From an uncultured Methanosarcinaceae archaeon (GTDB taxonomy: Archaea > Halobacteriota > Methanosarcinia > Methanosarcinales > Methanosarcinaceae): a stretch of 64,000 nucleotides of DNA. The stretch's first letter is position 1. Each line of letters opens with the position of its first letter. The notes beneath the pieces were generated by a model that searched no databases, was not told the origin of the DNA, and worked only from the letters and a program-made list of their open reading frames with translations. The stretch is from the NCBI GenBank assembly GCA_963721455.1, contig CAVRJG010000039.1, forward strand, positions 96,001-160,000, written 5' to 3'. Shown here piece by piece: positions 39,918 through 46,987 of this stretch. Made by a program: the position numbers and the translations under genes.

Positions 39918-41189
39918 TTAAAGAAAAATAAAATAGATAATAGCATCTAAAAACGTTATTAAAGCTCCAATTCGGAAGAATTCAGCAAAAGAAAGGGTTT
40001 CCCCCTCTTTTTCTGCGTTCTGGATAATTATAACGTTGCTTGCAGCCCCCAGGATTAACAGGTTACCCGCAATTGTACTTCCCGCAGCAAGCGCCATCAG
40101 CTGCCCCTGAGAAACTCCACTGCCCATAGCAGGCAGGTAGAGCGCAACAAATGGGACATTAGAAATAAGCTGACTGAGTCCAACGCTGAGGCCCAGGATC
40201 ATTGGCACCGAGCCTAACTGCGGAGACATCCTGCCAAGCAGTTCCTGGCATGTCCCGGAAATCCACACGCTTTCCATCAGCACAAACATCGAAACGAAAA
40301 AAACCAGAGTTGCCCAGTCAATATTTCTCAGAATCTCAATGCGTTTTCTACTGAGCAAGACAGGCGATGCGGAGAAAAGAGCAAGCCAGCTCAGACTGAA
40401 GTCCCAGGCAGGCAAAAATTCCACAAGAAAGACCTTACAGGCTATAAGAATTAGCATAAGGGAGAGAGCCATTTTTGCAACCCTGGCCAGTTCAGGATCG
40501 GTAATGATTTCTTCAGAATGGATCAGGGCTGATTTTCCGAATTCCTGCCAGAAAAAGAGTCTCAGAACGGCATAAGCAATTATGAGGCATATAAAAGTTG
40601 GCAGAGCGAGTGAACGCAAAAAAGTTACAAAAGGAGCATCCAGGTTTCCATCGACTGCTATGAGAAGGTTCTGAGGGTTTCCTATAGGGCTCATAACGCT
40701 TCCGGTAGTTACGCCGAAAGCCAGCGCAAAGAGCATGAGCTTGGGGGAGATATCGTACTTTCTGGAAAAACTCAGGACTAATGGAGTGCCCATAATTGCC
40801 AGGGTATCGTTCATAAGGATTGCAGAAAGAATTCCCGTAGAAAAGAGTACGAGCAAAACAAGTTGATCCGTATTCTTCGCCCTGGAAACTATCCGGCTTC
40901 CGAGCCAGGCAAGATACCCGCTCCTGTTAAGCGCCTCTCCCACGCAAAAAGCCCCGAAAAGGAAAATGAGTACGTCAGTGTTAATTGCCCCCAGAGCTTC
41001 TTCAGGCGAAATCTCGCCGAGCAATAGTACCGATATAGCTCCTAATGTCATGACCTGCCAGATCTGCAGTCTCAAAGACCCGACCTGCCTGAGAGCGGTC
41101 AGTACAAAGACGCCCAGAAGGATAAGTACTGAAAGGTCAGGTAAAGGTACGAGAAAAGACATTATAGACTCTGTTGCCATAGAACTCAT
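39918..41189 (-). CDS. IT-superfamily anion permease (CitMHS/ArsB/NhaD-like)
   Basis: SAILMNDT, SPIGNPQN, SNVP and GSTIAGNLLILGAASN motifs. Confidence 0.9.
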   Translation of the reverse strand: MSSMATESIMSFLVPLPDLSVLILLGVFVLTALRQVGSLRLQIWQVMTLGAISVLLLGEISPEEALGAINTDVLIFLFGAFCVGEALNRSGYLAWLGSRIVSRAKNTDQLVLLVLFSTGILSAILMNDTLAIMGTPLVLSFSRKYDISPKLMLFALAFGVTTGSVMSPIGNPQNLLIAVDGNLDAPFVTFLRSLALPTFICLIIAYAVLRLFFWQEFGKSALIHSEEIITDPELARVAKMALSLMLILIACKVFLVEFLPAWDFSLSWLALFSASPVLLSRKRIEILRNIDWATLVFFVSMFVLMESVWISGTCQELLGRMSPQLGSVPMILGLSVGLSQLISNVPFVALYLPAMGSGVSQGQLMALAAGSTIAGNLLILGAASNVIIIQNAEKEGETLSFAEFFRIGALITFLDAIIYFIFL

Positions 41190-41572: not shown

Positions 41573-42700
41573 TCAAAACCGTTTTTTTATTGCATCCCAG
41601 AGCATTTCCATTTTTTCAAATGGTGTATTCAGAGGGATTTCACATCCTGTAGTCAGGATAAAACCTTTTTTGGAAGCTGCGTTGAGGCAGCTTTTGACCT
41701 CGTGCTCAATCTCAACCATGGAACCGACAAGAGGCGCATCCGGAATTATGTTTCCCATAAGGCAGATGCCGGCATCGGAAAATTCTTTAAATTCGTTAAA
41801 ACAGTGTCGAGAGCTGCACCCGATATTTTTATGGTTGTGAAGCTTCTTGCATTCGACTCCGTATTTATTTTCGAGAGCCCGGACATTGCCAAAGGCGAAA
41901 TTCAGCGCATTGGGCTTGAGTTTTAATTCCAGGTCATAGAAGGCCTGGGCTGCACAGTTGTGGGAAATTACATATCCCCCTCGGGCTTTTATGTGCTCAT
42001 ATAACTCCTTTGTATAGGGCAGCATGAATTCCTCTGCCATCTGCCGGCTGAAAAGGTCGCCTGTATTTTCGCCGTTTTCAACGAAAATGCCGTCAACTCC
42101 TGCCTCAAGCAAGACATCGGCAAAATAGGTGCAGCTTTCAGTAAGTTTTTCCAGCAGGGAGTGAAAATTATCTCTGTCCTTCAGCATGTCAATGCAGAGC
42201 CTGCTCCCTCCCATAACCTGGGATGCAAGCATTAGAGGAGACATAGCCGCCCCGAGGATGAAGGTTTCATCCCCTATTTCCTTTTTAAGGATTTCAACCG
42301 AGCCTGCAACACTTTTTACCCTCTCAGAACGCTCGATATCTCCGGGATTTATCTGCTCGTGCTCAGCCGCAGATTTCAAGGCATATTTTGCAACTGCAGG
42401 ATATGCATTTTCCTTGATACTCACCTTTGTTCCCAGGGCTTCAGCTTCGACAAGCAGGCAGCCCCAGGGAGACATCACATTGTCGTGGTGGTACATCTCC
42501 CTGGCAAGAATCTGAGCTTTTGCAATACCTTCTGCAGAACAATAGACATCTTTGAGACTTGCGCCCATCCTTTCCAGAACTGCATGGCCGGCTCCGAACC
42601 AAAGATAACCGTAGGGGACCCGGTCAACATCCTTTTGCTCAAGCGCGTTAATGAAACGTTCCCTTGAGGTCATTTCCGCTTCCATATTAGATATCTCCAT
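41573..42700 (-). CDS. Uroporphyrinogen decarboxylase superfamily / MtaA-CmuA-like methyltransferase
   Basis: TSRERF...DRVP, VEAEALG, HxC (SHNC), LMGNI and GFILTTGCEIP motifs. Confidence 0.85.
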   Translation of the reverse strand: MEISNMEAEMTSRERFINALEQKDVDRVPYGYLWFGAGHAVLERMGASLKDVYCSAEGIAKAQILAREMYHHDNVMSPWGCLLVEAEALGTKVSIKENAYPAVAKYALKSAAEHEQINPGDIERSERVKSVAGSVEILKKEIGDETFILGAAMSPLMLASQVMGGSRLCIDMLKDRDNFHSLLEKLTESCTYFADVLLEAGVDGIFVENGENTGDLFSRQMAEEFMLPYTKELYEHIKARGGYVISHNCAAQAFYDLELKLKPNALNFAFGNVRALENKYGVECKKLHNHKNIGCSSRHCFNEFKEFSDAGICLMGNIIPDAPLVGSMVEIEHEVKSCLNAASKKGFILTTGCEIPLNTPFEKMEMLWDAIKKRF

Positions 42701-43133
42701 TTTTAAGCTTCCAGAGATTAATATAAAAGTAGTTGTATAAATACTGGCCAGAATAAAGGCTGAAAAAATTTCATTTTATTCTAAAAACTGCTCAAGCTAA
42801 AGTAAAATAATGTAAATAAAAAAGATGTAAGGGAAGAAAATTCTTCAACTACCCACTGTAACTCTGGAGAGGAATACTACGATCCTGCATTATCTGAATT
42901 CACCAGGCATCAGATAGCGGCTTTTGCACAAAGGCCGATACATGATAATAGGCTTGTACGGCTAAATAATGCAGGCGTGCTTGCATCAGACGAGTGAAAG
43001 TACCTCGTTAGGAATGTAGACTTTGCCTGTTATCGGAGCGTAGACAACTATGCCTTTGAGCTCATGAGTTGAGCCATCCTTGATAAAGCGTGCTAGAAGG
43101 ATTAAAAAAGTAAAATACAGTAGACGCACATCA

Positions 43134-43303
43134 AAAGAAGAGTAAGAAAAGTCCGGAAGCTCTATGTTCCTTTTACCGTAGCCCCCGATACAGTCGCTCT
43201 GAAAATACACTCCCCCAAGCGTATTAATTCAGAAAAGGACAAAGGGCTTCCGAGCAATTCTTCACTTACTATTCATACCTTACTCACTCGCTCTGTCCAC
43301 TCC
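43134..43303 (-). ncRNA. Putative structured sRNA, copy 1
   Basis: Closing stem CGGAAGC/GCTTCCG, inner TCCTTTT/AAAAGGA, hairpins AATACGCT-TGGGGG-AGTGTATT and ACTGTA-TCGGGGGC-TACGGT, U-rich tail. Confidence 0.65.
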
Positions 43304-43429
43304 AAATTACAATATAGAATTATCCCTGTAATTATTTTAAATTAATTATATCAAAAATTAGTTTCGAACGAAAAATGCTTTCGCATAAAAAGTTTTAAAA
43401 CCGAAATATAATTTCATACTAAATCAATT

Positions 43430-43469
43430 TTTAGCGTTACGCTGGACTTATTTAGCGTTACGCTGGACT
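43430..43469. repeat. 21-bp tandem duplication of a short hairpin
   Basis: TTTAGCGTTACGCTGGACT x2. Confidence 0.8.
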
Positions 43470-43794
43470 CAACGGAGCTTAAAAAAGAGCTACGGTAAAG
43501 AGGTTGATAGGGGATTAGTTTCAGCTTGCGATATGGTTGAAACTTTCAATAGGAATATATAAGGACGATTTCAGTTCTTCGAAGCCTTAACGAGACTTAG
43601 AAAAGAACTAAACAACATGACTCAAAAATAAAATTTGAAACCATAAAGCGAAAACATAACAAAAAAATAGCCTATTAGAAATCACAGCAAAAGAGTTTAG
43701 CAGGAAATAAAAAGAATAAGAAGAAGATATGCAGGAAATAAAAAGAATAAGAAGAAGATATAAAGGTTAGAAGAAATGAAGGTTACTAAAAGAT

Positions 43795-43966
43795 GGTAAA
43801 GACAGTATGAATATACCCAGAGGCACTGTATCCTTTGACTTTATCCCCCAATAAAGCCTCTCCGAAATTATGCTCCCCCAAGCATATTGGTCCGAAGAAG
43901 GATCAGCGACCCCCAGAAAATTCTCTTATTTATTGTGGTAAATACCCCATCTAACTTCCCAACTCC
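43795..43966 (-). ncRNA. Putative structured sRNA, copy 2
   Basis: CGCTGATCCTT/AAGGATACAGTG stem; hairpins TATGCTT-GGGG-GAGCATA and GGCTTTATT-GGGG-GATAAAGTC. Confidence 0.65.
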
Positions 43967-44305
43967 AGAATATACTAATAACATAAATTATTTTAAATTA
44001 ATTATACAAAATATTCTATTTAAGCAAAAAATAATTCGGCGTAAAAAATTTCAATGCCACCATAGAGTCAAATTCAGAGCCTGCGTTTTAGCTGAGAAAA
44101 AAAGATTTTATACCAGGCCCGGAGTAAAACAGAAGTTTCGTCGCAGATAAAAAGAATTCTGTGGCAGATAACAAATATGAGATAAATAGCAGAACCACGC
44201 AAATAAATCATGGAATAAGAACAGAAAAACAGTATCTTTTTTCAAAAAATCCGAAGATAATAAATAAGAATAAAAAGGAAATCATTTAAAAACATGTGAA
44301 AACTC

Positions 44306-44477
44306 AGTAAGAAGAAGCCCGAGAGCAGTTTAGTCCCTTTGCCGTATCCCCCAACACAGCCGCTCCAACGATATGTTCCCATCCAAATATCGTAAAGCAA
44401 GGATCAGGTAGCTCCCGGGCAATTCTGTCACAACCCGCTACTTTGCTATTCAATCATACCCTGTCTCTTCCAGCTCC
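44306..44477 (-). ncRNA. Putative structured sRNA, copy 3
   Basis: GCCCGGGAGC/GCTCTCGGGC closing stem; hairpins ACGATAT-TTGGATGGGAAC-ATATCGT and GCTGTGTT-GGGG-GATACGGC; U-rich tail. Confidence 0.65.
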
Positions 44478-44695
44478 AGAATATAGTAAGAGAATAAATT
44501 ATTTTAAATTAATTATACAAAAAATTGCCTACAAACAAAAAATAGTTCCATGCAAAATATTTCAAAGCCAGAAAAGAACTGTAGGTAGAAATACATGCAG
44601 AAGTCAAATCTGACCGGGAAATTAAGACAAAAAGTCCCGGGCTGGCACAAAAATTAAGTACATGAATTAATCTATAAGTAAAAGCCTTAATATGC

Positions 44696-44768
44696 AGTCC
44701 TGTAGGGTAGTGGTCAATCCTTCGGGCCTTTGGAGCCCGGGACAGCGGTTCGAATCCGCTCAGGACTA
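44696..44768 (+). tRNA. tRNA-Gln(TTG)
   Basis: AGTCCTG...CAGGACTA; anticodon arm CGGGC-CTTTGGA-GCCCG; GGTTCGAATCC T-arm. Confidence 0.97.
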
Positions 44769-45099
44769 TAAAAATATTTTTAATAATTCTAAGTAATTGA
44801 TGTTTTTATTACTGTTTTTCAAACTCTTTTATTTACGCCTATTCACAAAGTGTTAGCTGAAGCAAAAAAATGTTTTTGACGTAAAATTAATCCAACTTAA
44901 TACCAATAATGCGCAAGATAGAGTTTGAGCCTTTTGATAGTTGGCCTATGATAGAATTACCAATTTTTTTGATTACTTCCTGGACTGGTTTATGGGAATC
45001 TCATGGCTTCATAGATTGCTTCCCTTTTGCTCCAGGTTCATGGTTTTTAACTCATTTTAAGCTCTTTCAAACTCTGGTTTCGTCGTTGAGTCATTGATT

Positions 45100-45285
45100 T
45101 ATTATTAGATCTGTAAATGCTATTACTTTTTGGGAAGGGGTTGAAATCACTTTCGAAATGAAGTTTTTACAGTTTTTTCTCCAGGACCAGATGCAGTAAC
45201 CCCTGCGGTAGCGGTAGAAAATTCAAACGTTGTCACGACCATCAAAAAGGAGGACTGGAAGGGAGAAATCGGAAGTAGAGTATAA
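45100..45285 (+). pseudogene. Gene fragment duplicated with the peptide cassette (second copy at about 46230-46440)
   Basis: VNAITFWEGVEITFE...SPGPDAVTPAVAVENSNVVTTIKKEDWK vs VNSITFREGVETTFE...SPGPDAITPAPEVAVENSNAVTAIVKEDRK; coding strand uncertain. Confidence 0.5.
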
Positions 45286-45389
45286 ACAGGGACAGGACTC
45301 TGCCACGACATATAGATCGGTTTTAGGAAATAAATGAGAAAGTGGGAAAATTGGAAGGTAAGATAAAGACACCTACCTCTCAACAATCA

Positions 45390-45617
45390 TCAGCGACCCC
45401 GATCGTCACTGTCACAATTGCCCCGATCTTTCCAGTTACAACCGCCACCATCTTTACTATGTCCATCTCCACCAGATCCATCTCCACCAGATCCATCTCC
45501 ACCAGGTCCATCTCCACCATCAACGACTCTTGCTGATGCAGTTGTCAGAGATACTACAAAAAAGACAACCAGTAAAATGACCAGCGTCTTTTTTATTATA
45601 GATGTTTGTTCCCCCAT
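45390..45617 (-). CDS. Secreted Gly/Asp-rich peptide, paralog A
   Basis: Signal KKTLVILLVVFFVVSLTTASA; GGDGS repeats; Cys/Trp tail; shared promoter and terminator. Confidence 0.8.
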   Translation of the reverse strand: MGEQTSIIKKTLVILLVVFFVVSLTTASARVVDGGDGPGGDGSGGDGSGGDGHSKDGGGCNWKDRGNCDSDDRGR

Positions 45618-46583: not shown

Positions 46584-46987
46584 TTACCACCAGTCACATC
46601 TGTCCCAGCAGCCCCAATCGTTCAAGCCACAGCCACAGCCGCCATAGCCGCCCCAGTTGCCCAGGCCCCAGCCGCCATAGCCGCCCCAGTAGCCGCCCCA
46701 GCCGCCATAGCCACCACGGTGTCCTCCACCGTATCCACCACGGTGTCCTTTAAATCCTCCACCGTATCCACCGCGGTGTCTCCTCCACCGTATCCACCTT
46801 GGTGTGATCCACCGCCACCGTATCCACCGTGTGATCCACCGCCACCGTGTCCCATCTGATGTCCACCGCCACCGCCACGGCCACCGCCACGGCCACCGCC
46901 AGGAGCGGCGCTTACTGCCGCAGCTGTCACAGATACTACAAAACAGACAACTAGTAAAATAGCCAGTGTCTTTCTAAGTTTCCCCAT
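46584..46987 (-). CDS. Secreted Gly/Tyr/His/Trp-rich peptide, paralog B (1-nt frameshift near 46780)
   Basis: Signal MGKLRKTLAILLVVCFVVSVTAAAVSA; after the shift the frame reads HRGGYGGG...GGYGGWGGYWGG...GGCGCGLNDWGCWDRCDWW*. Confidence 0.8.

Follow-up and report, generated by a model that had tools for sequence, protein, structure and literature searches.

A multi-copy family of structured small RNAs with GGGG-capped hairpins in the Methanosarcinaceae

This analysis concerns three related loci in a 64,000-nt stretch of DNA from an uncultured Methanosarcinaceae archaeon (positions 96,001 to 160,000 of contig CAVRJG010000039.1, GenBank assembly GCA_963721455.1), hereafter called the window. 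They lie on the minus strand at approximately 43303-43132 (unit 1), 43966-43786 (unit 2) and 44477-44296 (unit 3) and belong to a multi-copy family of structured, non-coding small RNAs (sRNAs), here about 170 nt long, each of which is predicted to be transcribed from its own promoter. An initial annotation of the window had described them as a trio of paralogous structured RNAs with a shared promoter. The paralogy, the structure and the promoter all gained support, from the additional copies, covariation, strand preference, promoter conservation and RNA contigs; the three units do not, however, form a trio of their own, but are part of a family with 12 copies in this genome.

Three RNA units and their promoters

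As initially proposed, all three units start with GGAG on the minus strand, at 43303, 43966 and 44477. Between 42900 and 44800 they share one layout, consisting of an AT-rich region of about 70 nt with an identical 21-mer at its end, the GGAG, a purine-rich stretch, a structured core of higher G+C content and a U/C-rich tail with T runs. A repeat finder independently recovered two blocks of this layout, the promoter block (108 nt at 67-80% identity) and the block of the second hairpin (47 nt at 72-74%).

The 21-mer (TATAATTAATTTAAAATAATT), noticed from the start as an identical element upstream of each unit, matches the minus strand exactly at 43330-43350, 43986-44006 and 44497-44517, compared with 0.01 matches expected by chance. 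A fourth match, with three mismatches, overlies the first site on the plus strand because the element is nearly palindromic. The 21-mer contains a putative TATA box (TTTAAAATA) and is separated from GGAG by 26, 19 and 19 nt in units 1, 2 and 3, where the position weight matrix scored 45.7, 41.2 and 49.0 bits, respectively. Conservation extends upstream to about 43410 in unit 1, as an AT-rich region within the 108-nt repeat family D1 (43303-43410), to about 44066 in unit 2 and to about 44577 in unit 3. Archaeal TATA boxes are usually centred some 26-27 nt before the transcription start. Judged by the position of TTTAAAATA, transcription of units 2 and 3 would begin with the first G of their GGAG; in unit 1, the same promoter spacing would put the start about 7 nt further upstream, near 43310.

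In this genome, a weight matrix of the 31-nt element scored the 11 family sites at 36.9-49.0 bits and the best other site at 19.5 bits; the promoter therefore belongs to the sRNA family alone. Likewise, all ten genome-wide matches to the 21-mer with at most two mismatches lie upstream of family copies. Among 73 homologues with enough flanking sequence, 60 carry the 21-mer with at most three mismatches (none in 13 copies, one in 11, two in 16 and three in 20), four have four mismatches, three have five, and six lack a match. The 20 nt separating it from GGAG are conserved in the homologues as well, and altogether the promoter is better conserved than the RNA itself. That the copies share it suggests that the family is co-regulated. 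A scan for bacterial sigma-70 promoters and intrinsic terminators was uninformative, the host being an archaeon. At the other end, the pyrimidine-rich tails reported initially are found on each unit and across the family: they consist of 53% U and 24% C, and a run of at least four T occurs within about 45 nt in 49 of 64 copies. Such U/C-rich tails with T runs are the usual archaeal termination signal.

Unit 1 (43132-43310, subfamily A; covariance model match of 110.7 bits) has its predicted 5' end at 43303, the GGAG, or at about 43310, its core at 43146-43263 and the T runs of its U/C-rich tail at 43132-43150. The predicted fold caps both of its hairpins with GGGG, hairpin 1 at 43204-43225 and hairpin 2, with a C-G closing pair that is also supported by covariation, at 43175-43194. 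Unit 2 (43786-43966, 121.4 bits) represents subfamily B, the commonest type, with its core at 43810-43926 and its tail at 43786-43815; hairpins 1 (43870-43885) and 2 (43837-43858) both fold into GGGG tetraloops with a U-G closing pair, the latter again backed by closing-pair covariation. The most divergent subfamily, C, is represented by unit 3 (44296-44477, 84.0 bits; core 44312-44428; tail with TTTT at 44296-44317). The loop of its hairpin 1 (44368-44393) is larger, contains no more than GGG and is the sole one of the six without GGGG, in keeping with the initial count of GGGG in five of six loops, while hairpin 2 (44341-44360) folds into a GGGG tetraloop on a stem with three G-U pairs.

All three units share one core in their minimum-energy folds, in agreement with the initial statement that they fold alike: a closing stem leads into a three-way junction, from which two hairpins with G runs in their loops extend. 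The minimum free energies are -55.7, -51.9 and -53.2 kcal/mol for units 1 to 3 (z-scores -3.04, -2.65 and -1.76), and 1, 1 and 9 of 200 shuffled sequences, respectively, were as stable. Transcripts of the plus strand would reach only -41.6, -29.8 and -34.8 kcal/mol, which bears out the earlier point that G-U pairs restrict the fold to the minus strand.

Three sediment metatranscriptome runs from two studies provided RNA evidence, in the form of contigs placed on 43000-44800. These cover only 43122-43243, 43732-43975, 44281-44524 and the tRNA gene at 44696-44768; the spacers between the units have no contig cover, which is a pattern and not proof of silence. The RNA-library contigs confined to the units are 78-234 nt long. 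Unit 1 is represented at 43159-43212 and 43168-43206, and unit 2 by contigs of 234 and 206 nt that match 43740-43948 with 2 differences and 43776-43943 with 4 differences. For unit 3, one contig of 167 nt equals 44300-44466, and two others match 44331-44408 and 44379-44471 without differences. Many further contigs are relatives that match the core only. This pattern fits discrete small transcripts.

Among the features of trans-encoded intergenic sRNAs in archaea are a TATA/BRE-type promoter of their own about 25-30 nt before the start, a conserved secondary structure with covariation and the lack of a conserved reading frame. The family has all three, the first in the shape of the 21-mer with its TATA-like box ahead of a predicted start.

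Covariation, distribution and ancestry of the family

The cores of 11 copies from the own genome were aligned with MAFFT, and RNAalifold derived from this alignment (A2) a consensus of 29 pairs in four helices, 12 of which (pairs) show compensatory changes. A covariance model built from A2 (R1) was then used to align 88 matches from 66 sources, 76 of them distinct (A3). Here, 95.3% of 2173 cells form standard pairs and 27 of the 29 pairs changed on both sides (151 cells). None of 500 shuffles reached the A3 value on any of five measures, and sliding the partners by 1-3 columns left only 36-58% pairing. A3 was fitted to R1 and hence favours it; the MAFFT alignment of the own copies gives the same helices. 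The covarying stems quoted in the initial annotation are present as written, and the case for covariation extends to 76 distinct homologues. Many of the consensus pairs in these copies are U-G or G-U, and the sense strand is more stable than the antisense strand in 75 of 76 cores.

The closing helix has 9 bp. It is preceded by AAGAA and followed by UUCUU, which form helix P0 (5 bp, 86% paired, with little covariation). An inner stem of UCCUU with AAGGA had been part of the initial description; it exists, but proved optional, since in its consensus form (UCC-U/A-GGA) 78% of the cells are paired and one of the four pairs is gapped in 30 of 76 copies. Hairpin 2 is lengthened by two extra pairs, which are UA in 51 versus GC in 8 copies and UG in 54 versus CG in 13. 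Once such additional pairs are counted, each of the two hairpins is capped by a GGGG tetraloop whose closing pair is U-G, C-G or U-A. The G runs initially noted in the loops are thus real, and are best read as GGGG tetraloops with one of these closing pairs.

A search of the own 3.94-Mb assembly with R1 yielded exactly 12 matches, three of them in the window; BLAST together with a 21-mer search located nine further copies on eight other contigs. Two members are variants. The copy at C12:12236-12311 (minus strand) keeps the promoter and the closing stem and has only the second GGGG hairpin, without hairpin 1, and the copy at C72:3082-3195 (plus strand) has the full core and no recognisable promoter; the latter may be decaying. 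Outside any covariance model match, an isolated hairpin at C6:2418 (minus strand) resembles hairpin 2 of the family, with 7 of 7 stem pairs and a GGGG loop, and may be a remnant.

Searches for the distribution of the family used Infernal's stricter filters on sampled genomes, and negatives mean that no match was found in the genomes searched. Within the taxonomic family, R1 matched 18 of 101 genomes, namely the own genome, all 11 others of its genus-level group (g1) and all 6 of a second one (g13), whereas the 83 genomes of 14 other genera yielded no match. At the level of the order, 12 of 121 genomes matched, again only from g1 and g13, and none of the 87 genomes from five other families did. 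The search at family level recovered the sRNAs in each of the 17 other g1 and g13 genomes sampled, at 1-15 copies per genome. In addition, an exact 22-nt hairpin pattern matched 28 public records, whose titles name Methanosarcina, bins of Methanosarcinaceae, Methanosarcinales or Methanobacteriota, or a metagenome chromosome. Among the genomes searched, the family is confined to two genus-level groups, and the named records are Methanosarcina. The RNA length across the family is about 145-200 nt. Tandem arrays of 2-6 copies are common, with six copies in genome G028 and six at a spacing of 444-603 nt in genome G059.

The phylogeny of 76 cores, computed with FastTree from few columns and with many open forks, places the three window units in three subfamilies, each of which includes copies from other genomes. 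Unit 1 groups with copies from G063, G085 and G071 (support 93), unit 2 falls within a clade of 42 rows (support 98), and unit 3 joins G071, G037 and a copy from a metagenome-assembled genome at a weak support of 70. To place the 12 own copies on this tree takes 10 changes, compared with 11.4 on average after shuffling. Each of them groups with copies from other genomes; thus, the paralogues are older than the species and have been kept individually, rather than stemming from a recent burst. In G071, a unit-3-like and a unit-1-like copy lie 785 nt apart, probably the same array as in the window. The neighbours of the 12 copies are unrelated and occur in both orientations, without any recurrent flanking gene.

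Around the three units, a tRNA-Gln(UUG) gene (44696-44768, plus strand) is divergent from unit 3. Downstream of unit 1 and on the same strand, 430 nt away, follow a URO-D family protein (41573-42700), which has the fold of methylcobamide:CoM methyltransferases, and a CitMHS-type transporter (39918-41189). The spacer between units 1 and 2 (43430-43469 and 43700-43761) contains two exact tandem duplications: a 19-mer in two copies at 21-nt spacing, the first of which scores as a terminator-like hairpin on the plus strand, and a 31-mer that is likewise present twice. On the other side of the array, small proteins of 75-121 amino acids (aa) are encoded at 45390-45617 and 46622-46987 (both minus strand), and also at C39:143626-143958. 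They combine an N-terminal hydrophobic, signal-like segment with Gly-rich repeats (GGDGSGGDG, GGGRGGG, GGGGSHGG) and have no Pfam match; a 15-nt periodic DNA repeat lies within this cluster at 45448-45522.

G tracts, Shine-Dalgarno usage and known small RNAs

No positions of the RNA are better conserved than the four G of loop 2, which are present in 75-76 of the 76 copies. At the G positions of loop 1, G occurs in 61-71 of 76 copies; the loop G run is followed by A in 54 of the 76 copies and by C in 21. Further G tracts lie in the 5' domain, which is 15-65 nt long, consists of 69% purine and 11% C and is mostly unpaired in the predicted folds. These one or two tracts (GGAGUUGGGG, GGGGUAUCA) are conserved and common to the subfamilies. 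Counted over whole RNAs, at least three runs of four or more G occur in 52 of 64 copies, and at least four runs of three or more G in 61 of 64.

The G runs resemble Shine-Dalgarno (SD) sequences, whose usage in the own genome we surveyed with crude gene calls (longest open reading frames (ORFs) with ATG starts of at least 100 aa; window from -22 to -5). GGGGG peaks upstream of these ORFs, with 69 occurrences in the bin at -20 to -10 versus about 12 per bin. As the SD, GGGGG was found in 74 ORFs versus 185 for GGAGG, and UGGGGGA, which is also the sequence of the sRNA loops, precedes 20 ORFs, such that UGGGGGA is a real and common SD variant in this genome as judged by its position before these predicted starts. 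The sRNA loops thus cannot be told apart from functional ribosome-binding sites (RBSs). The 3' end of 16S rRNA reads GGAUCACCUCCU in three copies. Examples of GGGGG as SD are found at C56:50230, C45:134406 and C53:138441. Six near-identical copies of another element, probably an insertion sequence (IS), at C2:6039, C54:239014, C56:3448, C63:3546, C63:27369 and C73:40953, have an ORF with the SD AUUGGGGGAUU, which is near to sRNA loop 2; a second paralogous set of six copies, with ORFs of 135 aa, uses GUGGGGGAAAA. Recurrent 11-mers complementary to the sRNAs were considered as partners and rejected, since they correspond to the complementary strand of SD sites in repeated IS-like genes or of the family itself.

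A scan of 42500-45500 on both strands with cmscan against Rfam 15, at E-values up to 10, gave no match on the units. Only the tRNA exceeded the threshold (60.5 bits), and weak hits to sR15, mascRNA and CLRN1-AS1 lay outside the units, so the novelty initially claimed is not removed by Rfam. A catalogue of sRNAs from M. mazei Go1, published by Jager and co-workers in 2009, reportedly comprises 199 intergenic candidates, and some copies may already carry anonymous M. mazei sRNA numbers. The literature covered, which extended to sources other than this primary catalogue and the supplements, described no multi-copy G-loop sRNA for Methanosarcina, and neither did the available passages of PMC3510493, PMC3177094, PMC4152357, PMC5867862 and bioRxiv 2025.10.28.685009. 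New are the family with its covariance model, its restriction to two genus-level groups, the GGGG tetraloop motif, the private promoter and the link to the use of G runs as SD sequences. If the copies are listed in the M. mazei catalogue, the family structure, distribution, tetraloop motif and SD link would still be new.

Several known sRNA systems offer comparisons. CsrB/CsrC and RsmX/Y/Z of bacteria are sponge RNAs that bind their protein partner CsrA/RsmA through GGA motifs. Like these, the family described here presents a short invariant purine motif in several hairpin loops and single-stranded linkers, is encoded by paralogous genes with a dedicated promoter and is non-coding; in contrast, its motif is a GGGG tetraloop instead of GGA, displayed on two hairpins plus one or two linear tracts, and its host is an archaeon. 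We rejected membership in this class, given no CsrA, no Rfam match and no set of many GGA loops. A search for CsrA (PF02599) found no match in the own genome, which is 98.5% complete, whereas the controls E. coli, B. subtilis and T. maritima were positive; any sponge would therefore need another protein. LhrC1-5 of Listeria monocytogenes are likewise multi-copy and partly tandem, with their own promoters and a short repeated motif in loops and linkers. They are bacterial and share no homology with the Methanosarcina family, and while the UCCC of LhrC pairs with the SD of mRNAs, the family shows an SD-like G run, its mirror image.

Two bacterial sRNAs, RosA from Bacillus subtilis (PMC8216469) and RsaI from Staphylococcus aureus (bioRxiv 10.1101/278127), are reported to be G-rich sponges for C-rich sRNAs. 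They have in common with our family G-rich single-stranded motifs able to pair with C-rich, anti-SD-like sRNA seeds, an ability that is hypothetical for the Methanosarcina RNAs, and differ from it in being bacterial, single-copy and unrelated in sequence and fold. Closer by host are sRNA162/171, sRNA154 and sRNA41 of M. mazei, which are intergenic, possess their own promoters, measure 130-191 nt and are restricted to the same genus, Methanosarcina. Their functions concern RBSs; they carry anti-RBS sequences, whereas the GGGG-loop family carries RBS-like ones. As described, sRNA162/171 is 191 nt long, with stem-loops SL1-SL2, a 39-nt single-stranded linker and SL3, occurs at two loci and is cis-antisense to a neighbouring 5' untranslated region (PMC3510493); G-run strings do not occur in the text of that paper. 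The family differs from this description by its 5' tract, its closed three-way junction and its 12 loci with unrelated neighbours. sRNA154 is described as a 130-nt RNA from a single locus whose promoter contains an NrpR operator (GGTA-N6-TACC; PMC3177094). This operator was found neither in the window nor in any of 67 family 5' flanks, and the family is multi-locus, which sets it apart from sRNA154 as so described. The existence of anti-RBS sRNAs in M. mazei is also stated in the review PMC5867862.

Proposed function and alternatives

The best overall explanation, which we hold with about even confidence, is an sRNA family that serves as a trans-acting G-tract decoy. The three to five exposed G tracts would form its working surface, and the RNA would titrate a partner, as a decoy or sponge, rather than work as a specific antisense regulator. 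We favour a titrating role because a short invariant motif is held on a rigid scaffold, the genes are many and often in tandem, and their dedicated promoter is highly conserved. As UGGGGGA is itself a common SD variant, the favoured partner would be a C/U-rich RNA of the anti-SD type, either the CCUCC 3' end of 16S rRNA or anti-RBS sRNAs similar to sRNA41 or sRNA154. A protein that binds G tracts would be about equally likely, because A never replaces the central G, the unpaired G number only four, and the searches described below revealed neither a C-rich partner family nor mimicry of rRNA nor a larger group of GGGG hairpins.

A more specific version of the decoy is an abundant, multi-gene mimic of the archaeal RBS, whose rigid three-way scaffold would present three to five SD-like G tracts. 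Through these it would sequester either free small subunits, at the anti-SD end of their 16S rRNA, or the Methanosarcina anti-RBS sRNAs, and in both cases would set translation initiation globally. Such SD mimicry, suggested by the sequence of the loops, would be a fourth option beside the protein sponge, pairing to C-rich RNA and G-quartets that were considered initially; we put it forward tentatively, as rather unlikely in this particular form.

Several observations weigh against a decoy, or at least against pairing to an anti-SD sequence. At the centre of loop 2, A never takes the place of G (0 of 76 copies), even though GGAGG is the better complement of CCUCC, an observation that favours a CCCC(C) partner, a protein or a structural role. 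With the covarying closing pairs formed, just four G remain unpaired, which is little for base pairing unless the weak U-G and U-A pairs open. In the own genome, searches of CCCCC sites and of complementary 11-mers did not find a C-rich partner family: CCCCC sites are spread over sense (867), antisense (1386) and intergenic (884) positions, and UCCCCCA has no positional peak near ORF starts. Mimicry of rRNA is not apparent either, with blastn-short of the three units against one rRNA operon giving only matches of 7-12 nt (best E 0.19). Genome-wide, GGGG-capped hairpins are not enriched (234, including 14 in the family, versus 150-196 in three shuffles), and this census gives no sign of a wider regulon using the motif. 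The C12 copy without hairpin 1 and the C72 copy without a promoter do not fit well. Furthermore, the environmental RNA contigs carry no strand, ends or level, their libraries can contain DNA, and every statement on mechanism is one that we infer.

The main, though improbable, alternative to the G-tract decoy would make the RNAs classical base-pairing regulators. Here, the purine-rich 5' domain would be a subfamily-specific seed for pyrimidine-rich sites in mRNAs, with separate targets for each paralogue, and the three-way core with the U-rich tail would be a module for stability or chaperone binding, e.g., for an Sm-like protein. The 5' domains indeed differ in length and sequence among subfamilies A, B, C and the g13 types, yet are conserved among orthologues, and their low C content and mostly unpaired state would suit a seed, as would the old, individually retained paralogues. 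There is also a precedent, as sRNA162 of M. mazei is reported to mask an RBS with a single-stranded region (PMC3510493). However, it is the loop G runs and not the 5' domain that hold the most conserved positions of the RNA, and the conserved pieces of the 5' domain are again the G tracts GGAGUUGGGG and GGGGUAUCA, common to the subfamilies.

We consider it very unlikely that G-quartets are the point of the conserved runs, formed in the potassium-rich cytoplasm either by about four G tracts of one molecule or by the GGGG loops of two, as a switch or a dimer. The abundance of G runs in nearly all copies (61 and 52 of 64 by the two counts given above) and their near-invariance in the loops, with a centre that is never A, would be expected of a quadruplex. 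But the canonical motif with loops of 1-7 nt occurs in 0 of 67 copies and one with loops of up to 12 nt in only 5 of 67, and the hairpin stems and the pairs closing the tetraloops are under selection, which fixes the G runs at helix tips that are distant in sequence.

Even less credit is due to the idea that the units are short protein-coding transcripts (spRNAs), or a repeat at the level of DNA, such as a miniature inverted-repeat transposable element (MITE), without RNA function. Copies do occur both dispersed and in tandem, each unit overlaps with ORFs in the range of 31-52 aa, and in 24 of 64 copies the longest sense ORF begins at a TTG inside loop 1. These ORFs lie in different frames, though, and the median length of the longest sense ORF is 36 codons with scattered starts (64 copies), in line with the initial statement that no frame is intact across copies; indels between the hairpins are not multiples of three, and a 74-aa ORF over unit 1 has no Pfam match. 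The compensatory changes and the many G-U pairs fit an RNA of one strand only. Around the aligned copies there were no terminal inverted repeats or target duplications, for which no systematic search was made, and the own copies are old paralogues and not near-identical recent insertions. Finally, a role in cis, as the riboswitch or attenuator leader of the URO-D-family methyltransferase gene at 41573-42700, hardly comes into question: unit 1 lies 430 nt upstream on the same strand, and Methanosarcina methyltransferase genes are known for long leaders, but units 2 and 3 are followed by the promoter of the next unit and not by a gene, the genes next to the 12 copies are unrelated and face either way, a T-rich tail terminates every copy, and contig cover does not extend from the units into the spacers.

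Among methanogens, Methanosarcina serves as the main genetic model, yet to our knowledge a structure or role has been established for very few of the roughly 240 small RNAs reported from it. The family is a strong candidate for such study, as none of the sampled genomes of the group lacks it, copy numbers reach 15 per genome, and it is visible in environmental RNA; its covariation support exceeds that of most uncharacterised archaeal sRNAs, and the covariance model offers an immediate route to its annotation. If the reading as an RBS mimic is true, archaea would gain their first described example of an RNA sponge or decoy, one that mirrors the C-rich sRNAs of Firmicutes. If the displayed G tracts titrate ribosomes, anti-RBS sRNAs or a protein, RNA sponges would be added to the means of archaeal post-transcriptional control, and such titration would explain why so many copies have been retained.

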